A DNA stretch of 64,000 nt from Eubacteriales bacterium (lineage in GTDB: Bacteria; Bacillota; Clostridia; Oscillospirales; SIG627). The notes beneath the pieces were generated by a model. It was not told the origin of the DNA, did not search any database, and saw nothing but the letters and a program-made list of their open reading frames with translations. A program made the position numbers and the translations under genes. This document shows, piece by piece, positions 9,441-34,851 of the stretch. The stretch spans positions 960 through 64,959 of the forward strand of contig JAZNRO010000124.1 of the NCBI GenBank assembly GCA_045590715.1, written 5' to 3'. The number at the start of each line of letters is the position of its first letter. Positions within the stretch are counted from its first letter, which is position 1.

Positions 9441-10255
9441 TGAAAGTCGGACTGCAACTTTACAGCATCAGAGAAGCGCTTGCAAGCAATGTGCCGGGAA
9501 CGCTGAAGGCTGTAAAAGAAATGGGCTACGATTACGTAGAACTGGCAGGCGGCCGATACGGCCTTACCGGAAAAGAAATGAAAAAAGAAATAGAAAACGC
9601 AGGTCTTACCTGCGTTTCTATTCATTCTTCCCCCTCTCTTTATCTTCAGGATCGGGAAGACGTTCTTTCCTATATGAAAGATATGGGCGTATCTTACACG
9701 GTCATTCCCTGCCCTCCGGCACAACTGAAATCCTATACGGAAAACTGGGACGAGACCCTTCGTGTTTATGAAGAAATGGGCCATTTTTTCAAAGAAAACG
9801 GTCTTCAGCTTCTCTATCATAACCACGATTACGATTTCAAAGAGATCGACGGCAAGGTTATTATTGATACCCTGCTGGACAAACTAAAAGAAGTGGTTAT
9901 GCCCCAGCCGGATCTGGCCTGGGTCAGCTACGCCGGTACCAGACCTTCCGATTTTCTTTCTCGCCACAAGGGCCGTGTTCCCGTGGTACACATCAAAGAC
10001 TATATCTGCGAAAATCTTCCCAAAAAGCCCATTTGGCAGCTTTTGGCAGAAGGCCATCCGAGGCCCGAAAAGAAAAGTCTTGCGGGCTTTGACTACGCTC
10101 CCATCGGTCAGGGAGTTGAAATTTGGGATGAGGCACTGAAAGCCTGCAAAGAAGCAGGGGCAGAGTATCTTATCGTAGAACAGGATTCTTCTCCCGATCC
10201 CATGAGAACAGCGGCAGAAAGCCGTGCTTTTTTAAAAAATACCTTCAATCTCTAA
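9440..10255 (+). CDS. Sugar phosphate isomerase/epimerase (xylose-isomerase-like TIM barrel)
   Basis: 271 aa. MKVGLQLYSIRE start is typical of AP-endonuclease-2/TIM-barrel family members. 1-nt TAATG overlap with the upstream gene. Confidence 0.78.
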   Translation: MKVGLQLYSIREALASNVPGTLKAVKEMGYDYVELAGGRYGLTGKEMKKEIENAGLTCVSIHSSPSLYLQDREDVLSYMKDMGVSYTVIPCPPAQLKSYTENWDETLRVYEEMGHFFKENGLQLLYHNHDYDFKEIDGKVIIDTLLDKLKEVVMPQPDLAWVSYAGTRPSDFLSRHKGRVPVVHIKDYICENLPKKPIWQLLAEGHPRPEKKSLAGFDYAPIGQGVEIWDEALKACKEAGAEYLIVEQDSSPDPMRTAAESRAFLKNTFNL

Positions 10256-10271
10256 TTCAAAGGAGAAACAA

Positions 10272-11594
10272 ATGAGAGTAAAAATTCTTTGCCTAATTTT
10301 AGCGTTGTGCTTTTGTTTTCTTACCGGCTGTCAGTCCGGATTAATAACTCCAACTGATACTGCGGAAGAAACCAAAACCGAAGAAAAAAAGCCGGAGAAA
10401 GTGTATCCCAACGTAGGAAATCCCCTATCCTGGGAAAAGATTCGTGAAATCCCCATTGCAAACGACAGTATGACCGGGGAAGAACTGCGCAAGATCTGTG
10501 TAGACTATATGCGCCTCCAGCTTACCTTTGAATGGACGCCGGCGAAGACCCTCAGTTACTACTTTGAAACCAGAGGATATTCCATGGACTTTCCGGAAGG
10601 AAGAGTTTACGGCGGACTTCCCTATAAGACCTTTGACGGCAACGGAAACATTTATATCGTCATGGACTACTACGATCCGGAGACCGGTGTTCTAGATCCG
10701 GGCACCATTGCCGGAAAGAACTTTTTCTCTATTATCGGTAATGACTGTGCCAGCGGTCCTTTCTGGGCCTGGAGCAGAGTCATCAATTCCATTACCAATT
10801 TTAATGATTTTGAAAATCAGAACGGCTTTACCAACATCGGTCTTACCCCTCAGAACAACCTGATTCCCGTAGGTGGATATAAGAGCATTACCCAGGGCAC
10901 CTGGGACGACGGGAATGGCACCAAAGCCGTTTTAGAGCAAAACGGAACGGAAAAAATGTACGAATGCTACGCCCAGCTTCTGGAGGCTGACGGTCTGATC
11001 CGTTTATATCCCAAATATGAAGGGGCAGTACAAAGCCACAACCATCTGATGATGGTATCGGGAAAACCTAAAGTTGTGAGAAACGCCGACGGCACCATCA
11101 ACGGCGACCGCAGTTTCGTTACCATTATGGACCAGGAATCCTATATGTCCGAACAGCTGACGGAAAACGGTATTGTTCATTATGAAGGCGGTATTGACCT
11201 GGTATACACCTTCTCCAAACTTTATGAAGACTATTTCGCTCCATTCACCTTCAAGGAATTTTTAAAGACCGATCCGGTGGAAAAAGCAGAGGCCAGCATT
11301 AAAGTAGACGGAGATATGTACGACTACGAAACCCTGAAGACCGGTACGCTCAGTGCAAACTACGGTATTTCCCACGTAAGAATTACCTTCTTCGACAAAG
11401 AAGGTAATAAGGAATACAGTTATCGCCCCATCCCCAAAGATTGCGATACCCGGAATTTCAAGCTGAAAGATCTTCTTCTCCCCGCCTCCAAATGGCACGC
11501 TACGGAAGAAAACACCTGCGTCATCACTGCCTTCCTGGGCACGGGCGAAGAAATTGAAGTTCTGCGAGGCACTGTTTATCAAAAAAATTCATAA
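10272..11594 (+). CDS. Lipoprotein of unknown family, paralog 1 (putative Cys/His hydrolase)
   Basis: Signal peptide with lipobox LTGC. AAGGAG RBS. Motifs IIGNDCASGPFWAWSRV and EADGLI...SHNHLMM. The family is not one I recognise. Confidence 0.7.
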   Translation: MRVKILCLILALCFCFLTGCQSGLITPTDTAEETKTEEKKPEKVYPNVGNPLSWEKIREIPIANDSMTGEELRKICVDYMRLQLTFEWTPAKTLSYYFETRGYSMDFPEGRVYGGLPYKTFDGNGNIYIVMDYYDPETGVLDPGTIAGKNFFSIIGNDCASGPFWAWSRVINSITNFNDFENQNGFTNIGLTPQNNLIPVGGYKSITQGTWDDGNGTKAVLEQNGTEKMYECYAQLLEADGLIRLYPKYEGAVQSHNHLMMVSGKPKVVRNADGTINGDRSFVTIMDQESYMSEQLTENGIVHYEGGIDLVYTFSKLYEDYFAPFTFKEFLKTDPVEKAEASIKVDGDMYDYETLKTGTLSANYGISHVRITFFDKEGNKEYSYRPIPKDCDTRNFKLKDLLLPASKWHATEENTCVITAFLGTGEEIEVLRGTVYQKNS

Positions 11595-29077: not shown

Positions 29078-29171
29078 ATTTTGTAGGGGCGAAATGTGTT
29101 CGCCCGTCAAGGTTTGTGCAGATTTTGCGGACGAACACAGTTCGCCCCTACGGATTGATTGTTTTGCAGGC
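29078..29171. repeat. REP doublet, composite copy A (forward unit 29083-29105, reverse unit 29129-29151)
   Basis: GTAGGGGCGAAATGTGTTCGCCC ... GGACGAACACAGTTCGCCCCTAC plus a conserved tail. About 90% identical to 32736-32829. Confidence 0.8.
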
Positions 29172-29431: not shown

Positions 29432-32401
29432 TTATGCGTTTGCTGCAACAGCAGCTGCCTGGATGTAGAAGAGGAATGCTTCAGCAGCTTCATCGGTTTC
29501 AGCAGCCATCTGTGCAAGAGTTGCAACGGAGCCGCGGAATTCGAAGTAAGCACCGCCTTCGTAGCCGTCCTTAACCTTCAGAGCGAAGTTTTCTTCCATA
29601 TTCTGAGCAGCGAAGTACAGGTCGATAGTGATAGTCTGAGCATCGGTATCTACAACAGCCTTATCAGCCCAATCCATAGCGTTGAAGGTAACCATCAGAT
29701 CGGTGGGCATAGTAGAGAGAGTCAGAGTGAATCTAACGCCGGTAACGTTGGTCATGATGAAGTCAGCCTTCAGACCGGTAACGTCTGCCTGCTTTTCACC
29801 CTTTTCCAGGGAGAAGTCATATTCTTTAGCTTCAGCTTCGTAAGCGGAGGTGAAGCCTTCTTCATTTGCACCGCAAAGGTTTACAAGAGCCTGAGCCCAG
29901 GTCTGCCATGCACCGTCCAGCTGTTCTGCACCGAGAGCAGCGATGGTAGCAACAGACAGTTCAACGTCGGAAGCGAGAGAGCCGCCGAAGGTGAACGCGG
30001 TGTTGAAGTTGGGATAACCAACTGCGTAGGTAACTACGGAGTAGTAGGTTTCGTCGTAATCAGCGAGACCTTCTTCAGGATCTACAACAGAAGTACCGTT
30101 CATAAGGATGTCGTAGGTAAAGCCATCGATAGCATTAACTTCTTCTTTCAAGAACAGGAAGCGAATACCAAGAGCGGTATTGTTGTCGTCCATGATAACA
30201 GTAGCAGAAGCAGGAGCTACGGTGGTAGGAGCGGGAACGTAACCGTCGGTTACGTAGATGTCGCCGTTTTCTTCAACAACCTTACCAACGTTGGTCTCAT
30301 CGGTACCAGCCTGAGTGGTGGTAACAGTGAGGTTGCCAGCTGCGCCTACGAAGAGGATGCTGTAGGTGTCGGTATCAGCCCAAGAACCGGTGTTACGAAC
30401 AACAACGGAACCGGTAGCATTATTTACGGTGATCTTAGCCTGATAGAAGTCAATACGACCGCCGTTCATAGAGAAGCTGTCGATTTCGAGACCATCAGTG
30501 TTGGAACCGAACTTAACGATATCGGTAGCTTTGGTGCTCACAACTTCAAAGGTAGAAGAAGCAACAGTGGTATCAGCCTGCTTCTTGGTGATCATTTTTT
30601 CGAAATAACCGTCAGAAACGATGGTCTTAACGTCGCCTGCTACAGCGCCGGTCTTATTTGCATTTTCTGCATAGAAGAGACCTTTGAACTGAGGATAGTT
30701 TGCGCCGGCAAGAGCATTTTCAGAGGTGCCTTCTTCATAGTCTGCTGCCTGACCGGTAATACCACAAATATTGTTGGTAATATTGATAGCCTCAGTGCTC
30801 TTGTTCTGTACGCCACCGTGGAAGGTGGACATCAGGATACCTGCAGTGATATTGTTTACGATATCAGCGTAGGTGTAGTAGCGAGATCCGAAGAACGCGC
30901 CGTTAATGGTACCGCCATTGATGTTGTTGGTAGCGGGTTTTGCATCTTCGCCGCTTACAGAACGGTTCTCCCATACGGAAGCACCGGAGTAATTATTGAT
31001 GCTAGCGTTGCCTTCCAAAGTGAAGGTGTAGTTACCAGTTACGTAACCGTTAAGGCTAGAAGCTCTGGTAGCCATAACATCACCGGTAACAACTGCGTCA
31101 CCGCCAACGGTGATAGAGAAGTCGCCGATGAGGAATGCATCGCAGAAGCCCTGAACGGTGCCGATTACGTGACCGCCGAGAACGTTGATCTCGCAATCGC
31201 CATAGAAGAATTCAGCGGTAGTGCCGCCGCCATTGTTATCTGCATAGATGTTAGCAACGTTACCGGAGTAAACGGTAACTTCTGCCTGACCAACGGGCTT
31301 ACCGAGAACCTGGAACATATTGATGCTATTAAAATCAGCAGTATCGGAATTTTCATTACCGTTATCGATGATGATCTTGGCATCAACTTCAAAAGGTCTA
31401 ACGGTAGCCTGTCTGTTTGCAGCCTCGGTCAGATAGTCAGCATTACCGTAAACGATTACGTCTTCGATTTCATTTGCGGGATCGCCGCCTCTCTGCATCA
31501 AGCCCTGGAAGGCTGCGATGTTTTCAGCGGTGAGATCAGAACCGGAAGCAGTAATGTCATCAGACTTACCGTAAGTACCGGAAGGAGTTGCAGCAACGCC
31601 GGCACAGGTAATAAAGGTGTTTGCAGTAGTTACGCTGGTGCCTTTACCGAAGATGAAACCGGTGTCAACAAAGCCGTCGCCGTCTTTGTCGTTAGCGGTG
31701 ATCTTTTCGGGCTGAGCTACGTTGCTAGCCTGCCAGTTGTAGAAAGTATCTCCGCCATAAGCGTCAGCATTGAAATAAAGTTTCTTGCCTTCTGCGGGAG
31801 TGGGAAGATTTACGTCATGGAAGGTAACCAGACCGGAACCTGCCTGGATGTAAGCGTCTTCACCAGAAGTAACGGAGAAGGTCACATTGGTGAAGAAGTA
31901 ATCATTTGCAAATTCTAAACGATCGGTCTTGTTGATCTTGAGGGTAGAAGCTTTGTCCGCTTCAATACCTTCAATGACGATGGGGAGTTTGGTGTTGTCT
32001 TCTCTGAAGATAGTCATCGCACCGAAAGCGGTTTTGCCACTCTTACCGGTGTTTTTACCGTCTGAAAAGGCAGTCAGAGAGTCCTTGAATTTTACAACGA
32101 GGACAGATCCTGCTTCGTAGGCCTGGGTTCTAACAGCTGCATCAGTCAATACAGCGTAAAGATTCCAAGCGCTCTTCAGAACGGTGTCTTCTGAAGTCAA
32201 GCCTGCTTCATCAGCGGTAGCACCGCCGCCCAAAGCATAGTAGATTTTGGTCGCACCTTCTCTGGGGTCGGAGTAAGAATACTCGTACTCAGCGGGTGCT
32301 TCAGTTTCTTCTGCTGCAACGCCGGTAGCCAAGGCACCTGCTACACAGGAGAACAGCATCAAAACTGCGAGAAATACAGAAAGAAGTTTTGTAATTCTCA
32401 T
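29432..32401 (-). CDS. Large secreted protein (989 aa), beta-helix-like, unknown family
   Basis: ATG at 32401 with AAAGGAGG upstream. Sec signal MRITKLLSVFLAVLMLFSCVAGALA. G/T/A/N/V-rich. No anchor motif recognised. The track ORF adds 52 implausible N-terminal residues. Confidence 0.8.
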   Translation of the reverse strand: MRITKLLSVFLAVLMLFSCVAGALATGVAAEETEAPAEYEYSYSDPREGATKIYYALGGGATADEAGLTSEDTVLKSAWNLYAVLTDAAVRTQAYEAGSVLVVKFKDSLTAFSDGKNTGKSGKTAFGAMTIFREDNTKLPIVIEGIEADKASTLKINKTDRLEFANDYFFTNVTFSVTSGEDAYIQAGSGLVTFHDVNLPTPAEGKKLYFNADAYGGDTFYNWQASNVAQPEKITANDKDGDGFVDTGFIFGKGTSVTTANTFITCAGVAATPSGTYGKSDDITASGSDLTAENIAAFQGLMQRGGDPANEIEDVIVYGNADYLTEAANRQATVRPFEVDAKIIIDNGNENSDTADFNSINMFQVLGKPVGQAEVTVYSGNVANIYADNNGGGTTAEFFYGDCEINVLGGHVIGTVQGFCDAFLIGDFSITVGGDAVVTGDVMATRASSLNGYVTGNYTFTLEGNASINNYSGASVWENRSVSGEDAKPATNNINGGTINGAFFGSRYYTYADIVNNITAGILMSTFHGGVQNKSTEAINITNNICGITGQAADYEEGTSENALAGANYPQFKGLFYAENANKTGAVAGDVKTIVSDGYFEKMITKKQADTTVASSTFEVVSTKATDIVKFGSNTDGLEIDSFSMNGGRIDFYQAKITVNNATGSVVVRNTGSWADTDTYSILFVGAAGNLTVTTTQAGTDETNVGKVVEENGDIYVTDGYVPAPTTVAPASATVIMDDNNTALGIRFLFLKEEVNAIDGFTYDILMNGTSVVDPEEGLADYDETYYSVVTYAVGYPNFNTAFTFGGSLASDVELSVATIAALGAEQLDGAWQTWAQALVNLCGANEEGFTSAYEAEAKEYDFSLEKGEKQADVTGLKADFIMTNVTGVRFTLTLSTMPTDLMVTFNAMDWADKAVVDTDAQTITIDLYFAAQNMEENFALKVKDGYEGGAYFEFRGSVATLAQMAAETDEAAEAFLFYIQAAAVAANA

Positions 32402-32501
32402 TTTGGGTTTTCCTCCTTTTAAATTTCTACCCTTTGGGTAGATTAATATTGTTACGTAAGTGGTAGGCTGCAAAAGGAAACAATACCACCTATGCAAAGA
32501 T

Positions 32502-32530
32502 ATTCTATCAAAGAATAATCTTTTCGTCAA
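32502..32530 (-). promoter_or_regulatory. Sigma-A-like promoter of the large secreted protein gene
   Basis: Minus strand TTGACG, 17 nt spacer, TAGAAT. The 5' UTR is about 95 nt and contains two hairpins. Confidence 0.55.
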
Positions 32531-32735
32531 CCTTTTCTCATTATTTAATTTTAACAAAAATAAAGTTCACAATTTGTTCAGCTTTGCTTTTCGTCCCAAG
32601 ATCTAGCAAAAAGGTTTAAATTCCGGCATTTTTTGCTATATGTGGAAATTCCTTCCTTTTATTATATATAGAGAAAATATGAGTTTTGCATTGAATTTGC
32701 GGGCCGTCGGGGATGTGCACACAAGCACACATAGT

Positions 32736-32925
32736 ATTTTGTAGGGGCAAACTGTGTTCGCCCGCCAGGGTTTGTACAGATTTCACGGGCGAACACAGTT
32801 CGCCCCTACGGATTGATTGTTTTACAGGCGAACACAGTTTGTCCGTACGGGTTGTTTGCGTTGCGGGCGAACACAGTTCGCCCCTACAATAGTTTGTTTT
32901 ATGGGTGCACAAAGTTTGTCCGTAC
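32736..32925. repeat. REP array (composite copy B 32736-32829 plus three further units)
   Basis: Units at 32741-32763 (forward), 32787-32809, 32826-32848, 32865-32887 and 32904-32925 (reverse or degenerate). A second palindrome, GTCCGTACGGG, is interleaved. Confidence 0.8.
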
Positions 32926-32969
32926 GGGTATGTGTGAGCAAAATAAAAAAAGACCCCGAGAGGTCTTTT

Positions 32970-33494
32970 TTATTCAACGTATAATTCATCTTCCCGCCAT
33001 TTTATCGGATTGGAATAGATATAATTGCAAATTTTCACATATTCTTCCTCGGAACGGATAACGCGATCATAGAACGAACGTTGAAATACAGATTGGCCTA
33101 TGCTTTTTGTTATTTTCCCTTTGAATTGCTTCACCATCTGCGATACCGTAGGGGCGAACTGTGTTCGCCTGTCATCTATCTTTTCGATTCGCAATACTAA
33201 ATGAATATGATTGGGCATAATCACATAATAATCAATCTTGACATTTTCGTAAACAGTGTTCCATCGCTCTAATTCAGTTTCAACGCAAATGCCAATAGAA
33301 GACAACGGTAAATTTTGCGGGCGAACACAGTTCGCCCCTACATGCACATAATCATATTTTCCAATTTCAAAACCGTTTTTCCACAAAATCGGGCTTTTGG
33401 CTTCGGTACAAATGGTGATGAAATATCTGCCCTCAGAAGAATAATCGTGCTTATCCCAACGAATTTGCTTTCTTATTTTTAAATCTTTATTCAT
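32970..33494 (-). CDS. REP-associated tyrosine transposase (RAYT / IS200-like Y1 HUH protein)
   Basis: 174 aa from MNKDLKIRK. HUH-like MPNHIHLVL and Tyr motif YIYSNPIKW. The ATG overlaps the prmA TGA (ATGA). A REP array lies about 45 bp beyond its stop. Confidence 0.78.
   Translation of the reverse strand: MNKDLKIRKQIRWDKHDYSSEGRYFITICTEAKSPILWKNGFEIGKYDYVHVGANCVRPQNLPLSSIGICVETELERWNTVYENVKIDYYVIMPNHIHLVLRIEKIDDRRTQFAPTVSQMVKQFKGKITKSIGQSVFQRSFYDRVIRSEEEYVKICNYIYSNPIKWREDELYVE
33148..33169. repeat. REP unit inside the RAYT CDS
   Basis: GTAGGGGCGAACTGTGTTCGCC. Read on the minus strand it encodes RRTQFAPT. Confidence 0.75.
33319..33341. repeat. REP unit inside the RAYT CDS (opposite orientation)
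   Basis: GGGCGAACACAGTTCGCCCCTAC. Read on the minus strand it encodes VGANCVRP. Confidence 0.75.
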
Positions 33495-34441
33495 TTCTTT
33501 AAAGTAAGGCAGACCCAGCCGCCGCTGCGGTGAGTATCGGAGAGGAGAAAACCGTTCTTTAATAAAATAGAACGGATCTCCTCTTCCCTTTCTTCCAAAA
33601 TACCGGAAGCAAGAAGGGTGCCGCCCTCTTTCAGAGCCTTGAAAAGATAGGGTGCCATTTCGCCGATGATACCGGCTACGATATTGGCGCAAATGAGATC
33701 AAAGTCCTTGCCCATTTCCTCCCGTTTATCAGAATCGGAAATGATATCGCCACAGATAAAGGCTTTTTCCTCTATCACAATACCGTTTTTCTCAAAATTT
33801 TCCCGGGCGGTGCGTACGGCGGCTTCATCAATATCCACCGAGATACACTCTCCTGCGCCCAGTTTCATAGCGCCGATACCGAGAATACCGGAGCCACAGC
33901 CCATATCCAAAACGCGATCGCCTTTTTTCAGGGAGCGCTCCACTCCCTCCAGGCAAAGGCGGGTAGTATCGTGAGTACCGCTACCGAAAGCGGCGGCAGG
34001 GTCAATATCAATGACGGCTCTATCCCCTACCTCTTTGGCGCTGACCTCTTCCCAGCAAGGCTTGATGAAAAGGCGCTCTCCTACGGGGAAGGGATAAAAG
34101 TACTGTTTCCAGCGGGTATCCCAATCACTATTTTCTACCAGAATGATCTCACCGCTGACATCAGAATAACCCAGGTTTTCGCAAACGCCCAAAAGGAAGG
34201 ATAAGATCTCCTCCGCGCGGGGTCGATCGGAAACGTCAAAATAAAATTTAATTTCCGGCGGGAGATCCTGCTTTTCAAAGAGATCATCCTCAATATAATC
34301 GCAGAACATTTCCCCGGCGGATTCTAACAGATCGGAATGATCCAGGATTTCAAAAGTGTCATACCCCCCTGCAACAAGAAAGGTCGATACAAGATCGACC
34401 TTTTCTTTGGGGAGCTTGATTTTCAGCTCTAAATAATCCAT
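33491..34441 (-). CDS. prmA: Ribosomal protein L11 methyltransferase
   Basis: 316 aa. FGSGTHDTTRLCLE and the SAM motif VLDMGCGSGILGI. Confidence 0.92.
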   Translation of the reverse strand: MDYLELKIKLPKEKVDLVSTFLVAGGYDTFEILDHSDLLESAGEMFCDYIEDDLFEKQDLPPEIKFYFDVSDRPRAEEILSFLLGVCENLGYSDVSGEIILVENSDWDTRWKQYFYPFPVGERLFIKPCWEEVSAKEVGDRAVIDIDPAAAFGSGTHDTTRLCLEGVERSLKKGDRVLDMGCGSGILGIGAMKLGAGECISVDIDEAAVRTARENFEKNGIVIEEKAFICGDIISDSDKREEMGKDFDLICANIVAGIIGEMAPYLFKALKEGGTLLASGILEEREEEIRSILLKNGFLLSDTHRSGGWVCLTLKK

Positions 34442-34851
34442 CAGAATACGAACTTCTCCAGTTCTGCGGGGAGATCGGACTGATCAATGGAAGAAGTGCA
34501 TACGCAGGAAACTTCATACTTTTTGCAGAGAGCTTCCAGCTTCTGGGTGAAGGCGGTCCAAGCTGCTTTATCATCGCCGCAGATACGAAGGGCGGAGTCG
34601 ATGAAAAGATCCTTCACGTCATAATTGGTAGCGAGAATGCCGGAAACCAAGCCGTAGAGCTCGGCGGCTCCGCTTACGTCATAAGCCTCGGTATCAACCA
34701 GGCGAACTTTGTGATTTACGTCAAAAATAAGTTTATTGGACTTTTCTACGCAAACAACATTACCGGGAGAAGTTTCTACCGCTTTGTTTGCCAGCTCGAT
34801 CAGCTGCTTTGTCTTGCCGCTGCCCTTTAAACCGATGATCAATTTTAACAT
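34441..34851 (-). CDS. Small stand-alone P-loop NTPase (136 aa), unknown family
   Basis: Walker A GLKGSGKT at residues 7-14. Possible Walker B LFIDSA. 1-nt overlap with the prmA start. Confidence 0.6.
   Translation of the reverse strand: MLKLIIGLKGSGKTKQLIELANKAVETSPGNVVCVEKSNKLIFDVNHKVRLVDTEAYDVSGAAELYGLVSGILATNYDVKDLFIDSALRICGDDKAAWTAFTQKLEALCKKYEVSCVCTSSIDQSDLPAELEKFVF

Follow-up and report, generated by a model that had tools for sequence, protein, structure and literature searches.

Two Inverted REP Units Inside a RAYT-Type Gene of a Clostridia-Like Genome: Sequence Comparison Points to Long Residence and Constraint as DNA

Introduction

Repetitive extragenic palindromic (REP) elements and REP-associated tyrosine transposases (RAYT, or TnpA_REP) offer the clearest case of a repeat family that has persisted for a very long time alongside a domesticated transposase. 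How the enzyme and its repeats stay matched, and of what use the enzyme is to the cell, are questions touched by the locus presented here. It lies in a 64-kb stretch of contig JAZNRO010000124.1 from a Clostridia-like genome (the whole stretch is called the window), which contains one RAYT-like gene and one repeat family, and the gene carries two copies of the repeat inside its own coding sequence (CDS). The question raised by this arrangement is what the internal copies are: ordinary codons or a recent insertion, neutral passengers, a structured RNA, or sites on which the encoded enzyme acts. The features on which the answer depends are the following.

32970..33494 (-): RAYT/TnpA_REP-like Y1 HUH gene, 174 amino acids (aa); reading frame read from the sequence, with profile and structure matches
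33319..33341 (-): intragenic REP unit 1, GTAG orientation on the coding strand; exact match to the unit
33148..33170 (+): intragenic REP unit 2, GTAG orientation on the template strand; one mismatch to the unit
33201..33209 (-): HUH motif codons, H96-I97-H98; read from the sequence
33021..33023 (-): putative catalytic tyrosine Y158 (NYIYSNP); invariant in the alignment of homologues

Results

Two Inverted Units Flank the HUH Codons

The 23-nt unit GTAGGGGCGAACTGTGTTCGCCC consists of a GTAG tail, an 8-bp stem and a 3-nt loop, in the arrangement GTAG-GGGCGAAC-TGT-GTTCGCCC, where the stem GGGCGAAC/GTTCGCCC is perfect. With at most one mismatch it was found seven times in the window against 0.00 expected (100 shuffles), at 29083-29105(+), 29129-29151(-), 32741-32763(+), 32787-32809(-), 32865-32887(-), 33148-33170(+) and 33319-33341(-). 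The unit coordinates given in an earlier note on this DNA all held, and the first two sites are additions to them. Within the gene, unit 1 encodes VGANCVRP (aa 52-59), which is modelled as a loop joining strand 1 to the first long helix, a low-confidence excursion of the AlphaFold (AF2) model with a predicted local distance difference test (pLDDT) score below 50 at residues 50-57. Unit 2 encodes RRTQFAPT (aa 109-116), modelled as a coil that connects the HUH strand with the next helix. The two units are complementary at 22/22 positions, with 150 nt between the arms, and they flank the codons of the HUH strand in inverted orientation with the GTAG ends outward; this is the geometry that canonical REPtrons have around the gene, found here inside it.

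The Internal Units Are Shared by Distant Homologues and Vary as Nucleotide Pairs

The units were compared in the 33 closest homologues (alignment A1, 48-64% aa identity), in a distant set of 78 homologue CDSs from metagenomes (30-57% identity) and in 42 non-redundant genes used for covariation. In the closest 33 homologues the peptides were nearly invariant, VGANCVRP at site 1 and GRTQFAPT, GRPQVAPT or GRAK[HR]APT at site 2, in line with an explanation by ordinary coding, in which VGANCVRP and GRTQFAPT would be kept by protein need and resemble a REP by chance. In the distant homologues, against this explanation, the peptides varied freely, and the two sites changed in step, always as reverse-complement translations of each other: VGADIIRP/GRIISAPT, VGAATCRP/GRQVAAPT, VGAASCRP/GRQDAAPT, VGADAHIGP/PMWASAPT and VGEHSVRP/GCTECPPT. 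In most of the 78 CDSs, the longest exact intragenic inverted repeat had one arm about 40 aa ahead of MPNHxH and the other about 15 aa beyond it; the repeat always began with GTAGGG, followed by a lineage-specific stem. Peptides compatible with reverse complementarity at 7/8 residues or more were present in 42/144 cluster representatives (8/8 in 27), while about 2.4 were expected when the two halves were paired between different proteins. The GTAG-outward orientation was common to 41 of these 42 matched pairs; the sole swapped orientation was that of P0213, where GRPMAAPT precedes the HUH motif and VGAASGRP follows it.

The 42 genes of the covariation set carry 35 different unit sequences, and a GTAG followed by a hairpin fold (-8 kcal/mol or lower) was found in 41/42 genes at site 1 and in 41/42 at site 2. 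Unit 1 differed from the reverse complement of unit 2 by a median of 1/16 mismatches within a gene and 9/16 between genes, and pairs with three mismatches or fewer made up 81% of the within-gene and 5% of the between-gene comparisons. Where the stems of the two units of one gene differed, 40 positions were compensated, 10 were still pairable and 25 broke the pairing, these last mostly from genes whose two units have wholly different stems; the GTAG tail never differed between the two units of one gene. When 26 distinct units were aligned without gaps, 98% of the cells paired as compared to 34-52% in slid registers, and double-sided compensatory cells numbered 42 against 11.5 +/- 2.8 in shuffles, a count reached in 0/500 of them; the preselection of this alignment for at least 7/8 pairs inflates the percentage paired and not the count of double changes.

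The synonymous sites were also frozen. Seven genes of 48-64% aa identity (one near-identical pair excepted) had the same 24 nt at unit 1, and at conserved residues the codons were identical in 272/296 cases (0.92) within the units as compared to 659/1442 (0.46) elsewhere. In a gene pair 17% divergent in DNA, the units stood out as islands of identity. On these comparisons, the internal copies are shown to be long-term residents of the gene, constrained as DNA rather than as peptide. The synonymous freezing, the stem compensation, the covariation and the occupation of these two sites among genes with 30-60% identity refuted both the ordinary coding sequence and the recent insertion, to which we assign a negligible chance; the two possibilities raised in the earlier note, that orthologues would reveal the units as insertions or as ordinary codons, thus did not hold. 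At a deeper level the units behave as ancient loop insertions or losses, since distant homologues without units have correspondingly shorter loops.

Some homologues have an expanded or rearranged set of units. Longer proteins of 200-260 aa (P0129, P0141, P0177, P0196, P0253 and P0256) contain several extra REP-derived units in different frames, placed in these two loops and in extensions of the N-terminus, and forming in-frame intragenic REP arrays. P0008 has a perfect 21-aa tandem duplication, SIDPQVFDWHSVGANCVRPQN, spanning unit 1, as slippage or hairpin REP-mediated duplication would give. L122 and L203, L204, L205 and L121, near-identical alleles from one human-gut species, are identical from about -78 to +142 of the gene and then about 10% divergent, the divergence of L122 setting in right where unit 1 ends on its 3' side, at position 143; this single case suggests a recombination breakpoint at the hairpin.

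A Long-Range mRNA Helix Is Predicted in the Window Gene

Each internal unit was predicted to fold as a hairpin of -14 kcal/mol, and the two together as a 22-bp long-range mRNA helix; the fold of the 221-nt segment contained this unit1:unit2 helix, with a minimum free energy of -75 kcal/mol and a z of -5.96. Such a strong predicted helix, of 22 bp or more around the HUH-coding segment, agrees with an RNA element, that is, a selected mRNA structure, formed by the local hairpins or by the long-range helix, that would limit translation or trigger RNase III cleavage and in which the REP likeness would be secondary. mRNA structure commonly keeps transposases low, and has been suggested to do so for REPs beside RAYT genes (PMC3733652). 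An RNA element leaves unexplained, however, the invariant GTAG tail on opposite strands and the match to the extragenic repeats. In several genes, units 1 and 2 differ in stem while each still forms a hairpin, and the long-range helix is therefore not a general selected feature; as a conserved feature it was ruled out. We regard this explanation as improbable.

Extragenic Copies Lie Close to the Gene as Doublets and an Array

Outside the gene, the repeat is organized as follows.

32731..32929 (strand not assigned): extragenic REP array; inverted doublet 32741+/32787-, then direct repeats with a 39-nt period
Within 32731..32929: direct repeats of the array, 32826- (degenerate), 32865- and 32903- (degenerate); repeat search
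29083..29151 (strand not assigned): second REPIN-like inverted doublet, 29083+/29129-; unit search

The array has a period of 39 nt in 3.8 copies, or of 77 nt in 1.9 copies, and the degenerate units 32826-32848 and 32903-32925 are true members of it. What had been described as a separate second palindrome, GTCCGTACGGG, is actually the mutated 3' stem and tail of two degenerate units. Both doublets (29083/29129 and 32741/32787) are inverted with 46 nt from start to start and are homologous over about 90 nt, spacer and flanks included; inverted REPs with a short spacer that are themselves repeated correspond to REPINs (REP doublets forming hairpins). Extragenic units amounted to seven in 64 kb (degenerate ones included), every one within 4.4 kb of the RAYT gene. 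A generic search of the window for GTAG plus a hairpin returned 12 sites against 1.9 in shuffles. No known RNA family was detected by an Rfam scan of 28.5-35 kb, in which the doublets gave far sub-threshold matches to plant miRNA hairpins. Decayed fragments of the RAYT gene were ruled out as a source of the extragenic units, the tblastn similarity outside the gene being restricted to 8-11 unit-encoded residues.

The extragenic copy at 29119-29151 and unit 1 of the CDS (33309-33341) share 33 nt, including the 3' flank CCGCAAAAT, which within the RAYT gene encodes the conserved P-Q-N. The CAAAAT flank common to the two was rejected as part of a REP consensus, as conservation in at least 184 foreign units stops at ...GCCCG[C/T]. 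This hints that the 29151 copy may have been derived from the internal unit of the gene, with the odds of a chance match at roughly 0.003-0.01. The unit is free of stops in 5/6 frames, only the frame reading TAG being closed, and its translations VGANCVRP, CRGELCSP, GRTQFAPT, RANTVRPY and GEHSSPL occur in spurious small open reading frames (ORFs; 32616-32989) as well as in real homologues.

The Internal Unit Matches the Extragenic Repeats of Its Own Neighbourhood

The window unit was dispersed in other genomes, in at least 120 stretches, mostly from metagenome-assembled genomes (MAGs) of Clostridia (Oscillospiraceae, Acutalibacteraceae and Ruminococcus). Among the matches listed, 164/166 fell outside any RAYT homologue, the units were depleted in long ORF-like stretches (43% versus 88% of bases), and the commonest arrangement was a +/- doublet 40-59 nt apart. 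The unit was also present, within the same matches, in Zoogloeaceae, Helicobacteraceae, Coriobacteriales and cyanobacteria, which implies that the system has spread horizontally or that this hairpin is under strong constraint. The exact 22-mer of stem and tail was found there in L010 (Zoogloeaceae), L012 and L004 (Helicobacteraceae), L049 (Coriobacteriales), and L026 and L080 (cyanobacteria). It is dense in the Zoogloeaceae MAG L010, with seven copies in 8 kb, and some of the genomes from unrelated phyla came from termite guts. A blastn comparison of the window with the 120 loci revealed no similarity other than that of the units.

In the flanks of the homologue loci, a gene's own unit was found at 0.125 per kb (43 matches, 17/63 loci) as compared to 0.00096 per kb for foreign units. 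At L145, L164, L167, L193 and L202, the internal variants matched particular neighbouring extragenic variants. E. coli rayT, used as a control, has two inverted REPs outside the CDS and zero inside.

The 174-aa Protein Resembles TnpA_REP in Motifs and Predicted Fold

The HUH-like frame claimed for this locus was confirmed, 174 aa with MPNHIHLV and NYIYSNP being read at 32970-33494(-). Residues H96, H98 and Y158 are invariant in alignment A1, and the Y158 motif aligns with YIYINP of E. coli TnpA_REP (4ER8), which was the sole sequence match in the PDB (E 1e-4). The profile check was divided: the E-value for NCBIfam REP_Tyr_transpos (NF047646) was clear (5.6e-17), while its score of 62 bits was below the curated cut-off of 80, as was that of Pfam Y1_Tnp (19.5 bits, cut-off 23), and both matches were confined to the C-terminal half of the protein. 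The AF2 model (pLDDT 74) had 4er8_A as its top Foldseek match, with an E-value of 9e-6, template modelling (TM) scores of 0.59/0.62 and a root-mean-square deviation (rmsd) of 2.4 Å; ranks 2-30 were IS200/IS605 TnpA structures (IS608, ISDra2) with rmsd of 7-15 Å. Among the RAYT motifs of Nunvar 2010, T27 is invariant and T30 nearly so in the homologue alignment, and the tyrosine-adjacent motif NP(L/V)(R/K)xG reads NPIKWR in the window and NP[LIV][KR]W in homologues, the Gly being absent. Judged by these matches, the protein is a divergent TnpA_REP/RAYT-type Y1 HUH enzyme with its motif residues intact. The family is large, with 13,764 cluster representatives (50% identity) at E<=1e-3 and 3,439 at E<=1e-10. 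The proposal of a REP/RAYT pair in a Clostridia-like genome is thereby borne out, the enzyme matching TnpA_REP and the internal units being genuine copies of the extragenic repeat. Domestication, which the earlier note had suggested for the locus, is the standard view of RAYTs and is not shown by the window locus.

Discussion

Possible Role of the Internal Copies

With a probability of about 0.55, slightly better than even, the locus is a chromosomal REP/RAYT module whose internal copies serve as substrates of the enzyme and damp its expression. The module would consist of a TnpA_REP-type nuclease together with its cognate GTAG hairpins, arranged as doublets, as an array past the terminator and as the two internal copies. 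These internal copies would be bona fide single-stranded DNA substrates of the encoded enzyme, and would be kept matched to the extragenic repeats by recognition selection, by copy exchange or by both. As a side effect, and as the weakest step of the proposal, the hairpins and the 22-bp mRNA helix may damp expression and keep the nuclease level low. Taken separately, the parts of this reading differ in strength. The data speak for internal copies that have long belonged to the REP population, and against sporadic insertions; a function for them, as cis sites or as an expression brake, has roughly even odds. The stronger view that they form a selected functional part, the 'ends' of a REPtron moved in frame, so that the gene would belong to the repeat population that it services, is put forward tentatively and has clearly less than an even chance. 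If it were true, the internal copies might be a protected master copy, an autoregulatory cis site or a recombination junction, and the architecture would extend to thousands of protein clusters and would explain the long-lasting match between RAYT specificity and REP sequence.

Several observations weigh against a functional role. Six homologues (L160, L177, L183, L188, L197 and L199) keep HUH and the tyrosine without one or both units, thus indicating that the units are not required for the fold, and L127, L128 and L150 are without unit 1. The units are decayed, by a broken stem or a lost GTAG, in L159, L133 and L135 (unit 1); these genes may be heading toward inactivation, and L159 also has an altered C-terminus. 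The stems at units 1 and 2 are different in L191, L164 and L139, and perfect internal pairs are present in L121, L122 and L203 with no extragenic copy within 10-12 kb. A published structural model puts the insertion off the DNA-binding surface, and its authors considered it peripheral, variable, of little impact on activity and probably neutral (PMC6006769). Passive inheritance from a conserved extragenic REP family via gene conversion could also account for the conservation of the internal copies.

An alternative reading is that of neutral passengers, in which in-frame REPs sit in two permissive surface loops and are kept REP-like by conversion or re-insertion without a role in the gene, their persistence being eased by a unit that is open in 5/6 frames. 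This is essentially the published interpretation of Quentin et al. (2018). It agrees with loops that are of low confidence or coil in the model, with homologues that have no units, with expanded homologues whose two loops and N-terminus hold extra units read in other frames, with the tandem duplication of P0008, and with L167, L193 and L202, where internal variants match particular extragenic variants as conversion predicts. It accounts less readily for a position, frame and GTAG-outward orientation that are fixed (the same orientation in 41/42 matched pairs, and likewise in most of the genes examined), for perfect internal pairs that endure without an extragenic donor within 10-12 kb, or for the 24-nt identity of unit 1 in seven genes of about 50-60% identity, although conversion from distant donors is compatible with all of these. 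Neutral passengers are considered less likely, if the most serious of the alternatives.

Comparison With Published REP/RAYT Systems

In-frame REP insertions inside tnpA_REP genes were reported by Quentin, Siguier, Chandler and Fichant (2018, BMC Genomics 19:475; PMC6006769) as a hallmark of subclass 2.4, which is the RAYT Group 4 of Bertels et al. (2017), and the window locus is thus a clostridial member of an already known kind. The internal units, which the earlier note considered unusual for such an enzyme, are accordingly a published hallmark, and most homologues have them at these two positions. For the most part, the insertions of subclass 2.4 are placed between HuH and Y, where unit 2 lies here (PMC6006769). 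By REP type and by its in-frame copies the window system fits the description of this subclass, and the motif match is partial. Both have REPs with a GTAG foot and a stem closed at the bottom by three G-C pairs, the window stem GGGCGAAC/GTTCGCCC is itself given in Table S1 for a 2.4 REPtron (PMC6006769), and REP copies lie in frame within the tnpA_REP gene, the window gene included; of the motifs NH[IFV]H, WQ and YIxNNP, the window protein has NHIH, FQ (WQ in homologues) and YIYSNP, the last fitting only in part. The system differs in that most homologues have NHLH, outside the published NH[IFV]H, in an HuH-Y distance of 62 aa as compared to a published median of 88, and in the Clostridia-like genome from which the gene comes.

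The main text of Quentin 2018 describes no second fixed REP site before HUH, no inverted GTAG-outward pairing, no synonymous freezing and no local covariation, and no mention of REPs inside RAYT genes was found in Nunvar 2010, Bertels 2017, Di Nocera 2013, Ton-Hoang 2012, Messing 2012, Corneloup 2021 or Bertels & Rainey 2022. New beyond the published main text are the second fixed site before HUH, the inverted GTAG-outward pairing, the synonymous freezing, the compensatory stems, the covariation with neighbouring extragenic copies and the size of the clade.

The E. coli REPtron, rayT (yafM)/TnpA_REP 4ER8, is the best match in sequence and fold, with HUH and the tyrosine, and its enzyme recognises a 5' GTAG plus hairpin (PMC3333891, PMC3479197). 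It differs in that its two REPs flank the CDS with none internal, in a longer bulged stem as compared to the perfect 8 bp with a 3-nt loop found here, and in an identity of about 17% over the Foldseek alignment. The REPIN-RAYT systems of Pseudomonas and enterobacteria (Bertels and Rainey 2011, PMC3116915) likewise have spaced inverted doublets beside a RAYT gene, and the window contains a single copy of such a gene; in the source genome, however, the copy number of the units looks low, as judged from 64 kb, and the internal doublet has a coding spacer of 150 nt. IS200/IS605 elements (IS608, ISDra2 TnpA) share the Y1 HUH fold and use subterminal hairpins as recognition elements. The window gene, unlike these, is not a bounded multi-copy element, as it overlaps the prmA stop at its start and has a terminator at its end; its hairpins are within the gene and not at element ends, and its protein folds closer to TnpA_REP (rmsd 2.4 Å versus 7-15 Å).

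More remote parallels were also found. In pT181-family plasmids (PMC5703833), the nick site of a tyrosine enzyme lies within its own gene and the encoded peptide is dispensable, but these belong to the Rep_trans family and have a single site, a plasmid replication origin, in place of chromosomal repeats, and no inverted pair. Intragenic REPs with GTAG were found to be tolerated in frame in coding regions by Di Nocera et al. 2013 (PMC3733652); those are sporadic and in genes unrelated to transposases, whereas here they occupy the gene of the cognate enzyme at sites fixed across the clade.

The clade is large and apparently rich in gut anaerobes, and the cognate hairpin can be read from a single gene, which makes it a natural experiment; synonymous recoding of the hairpins offers a simple genetic handle on the action of a RAYT upon its own gene. 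For annotation, a REP origin explains odd low-complexity peptides in proteins (VGANCVRP, GRTQFAPT, CRGELCSP, GEHSSPL and RANTVRPY) and spurious ORFs.

Genomic Context of the RAYT Gene

The genes and signals around the RAYT gene are the following.

33491..34441 (-): prmA, ribosomal protein L11 methyltransferase; Pfam PrmA E 1e-71
34441..34851 (-): 136-aa ORF, first in an apparent three-gene unit; ORF list
32946..32971 (-): intrinsic-terminator-like hairpin and T-run on the RAYT stop codon; sequence prediction

On the minus strand, the 136-aa ORF, prmA and the 174-aa ORF are tightly packed in that order. A promoter-like site is immediately 5' of the 136-aa ORF, the end of which shares one base (34441) with the start of prmA, and the TGA of prmA and the ATG of the 174-aa ORF overlap as ATGA (33491-33494, 4 nt). 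The RAYT gene is thus apparently the last gene of a prmA transcription unit that would close at the predicted terminator, the hairpin of which occupies the gap of about 45 nt between the REP array and the RAYT stop codon. The window gene has prmA on its upstream flank, extragenic REPs downstream only and an inverted REP pair within the CDS, unlike homologue loci such as L145, where REP copies flank the gene on both sides.

Operonic coupling to prmA had been taken as a meaningful feature. It is not conserved: prmA adjoins the gene in the window and at no other homologue locus, so a conserved prmA-RAYT operon was ruled out, and L202, the only other homologue locus with prmA, has it 8 kb from the RAYT gene. 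The coupling is incidental and peculiar to the source genome. Homologues occur as single genes in differing operons. At 17/45 non-redundant loci, the RAYT start is no more than 40 nt from the end of a co-directional long ORF upstream, which often leaves the gene without space for its own promoter, and the partner gene varies; the upstream neighbours include a NUDIX gene (ATGA overlap), a UbiE-like methyltransferase (with queH after the RAYT gene) and an unannotated 310-aa gene. L203-L205 belong to a human-gut species that is very common, its protein P0041 occurring in 796 data blocks. The RAYT gene of these loci (10001-10474) is flanked by the UbiE-like methyltransferase and queH (gaps of 23 and 2 nt), and has two perfect internal units, while neither flank has an extragenic copy within 10 kb.

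In the window, the REPIN-like doublet at 29083-29151 is just downstream of a 1041-aa ORF for an Ala/Thr-rich secreted protein, 29432-32557(-), which therefore has REP clusters on either side, this doublet on one and the array on the other. The 136-aa ORF at 34441-34851(-) had no match in Pfam, and contains a Walker-A-like motif, GLKGSGKT.

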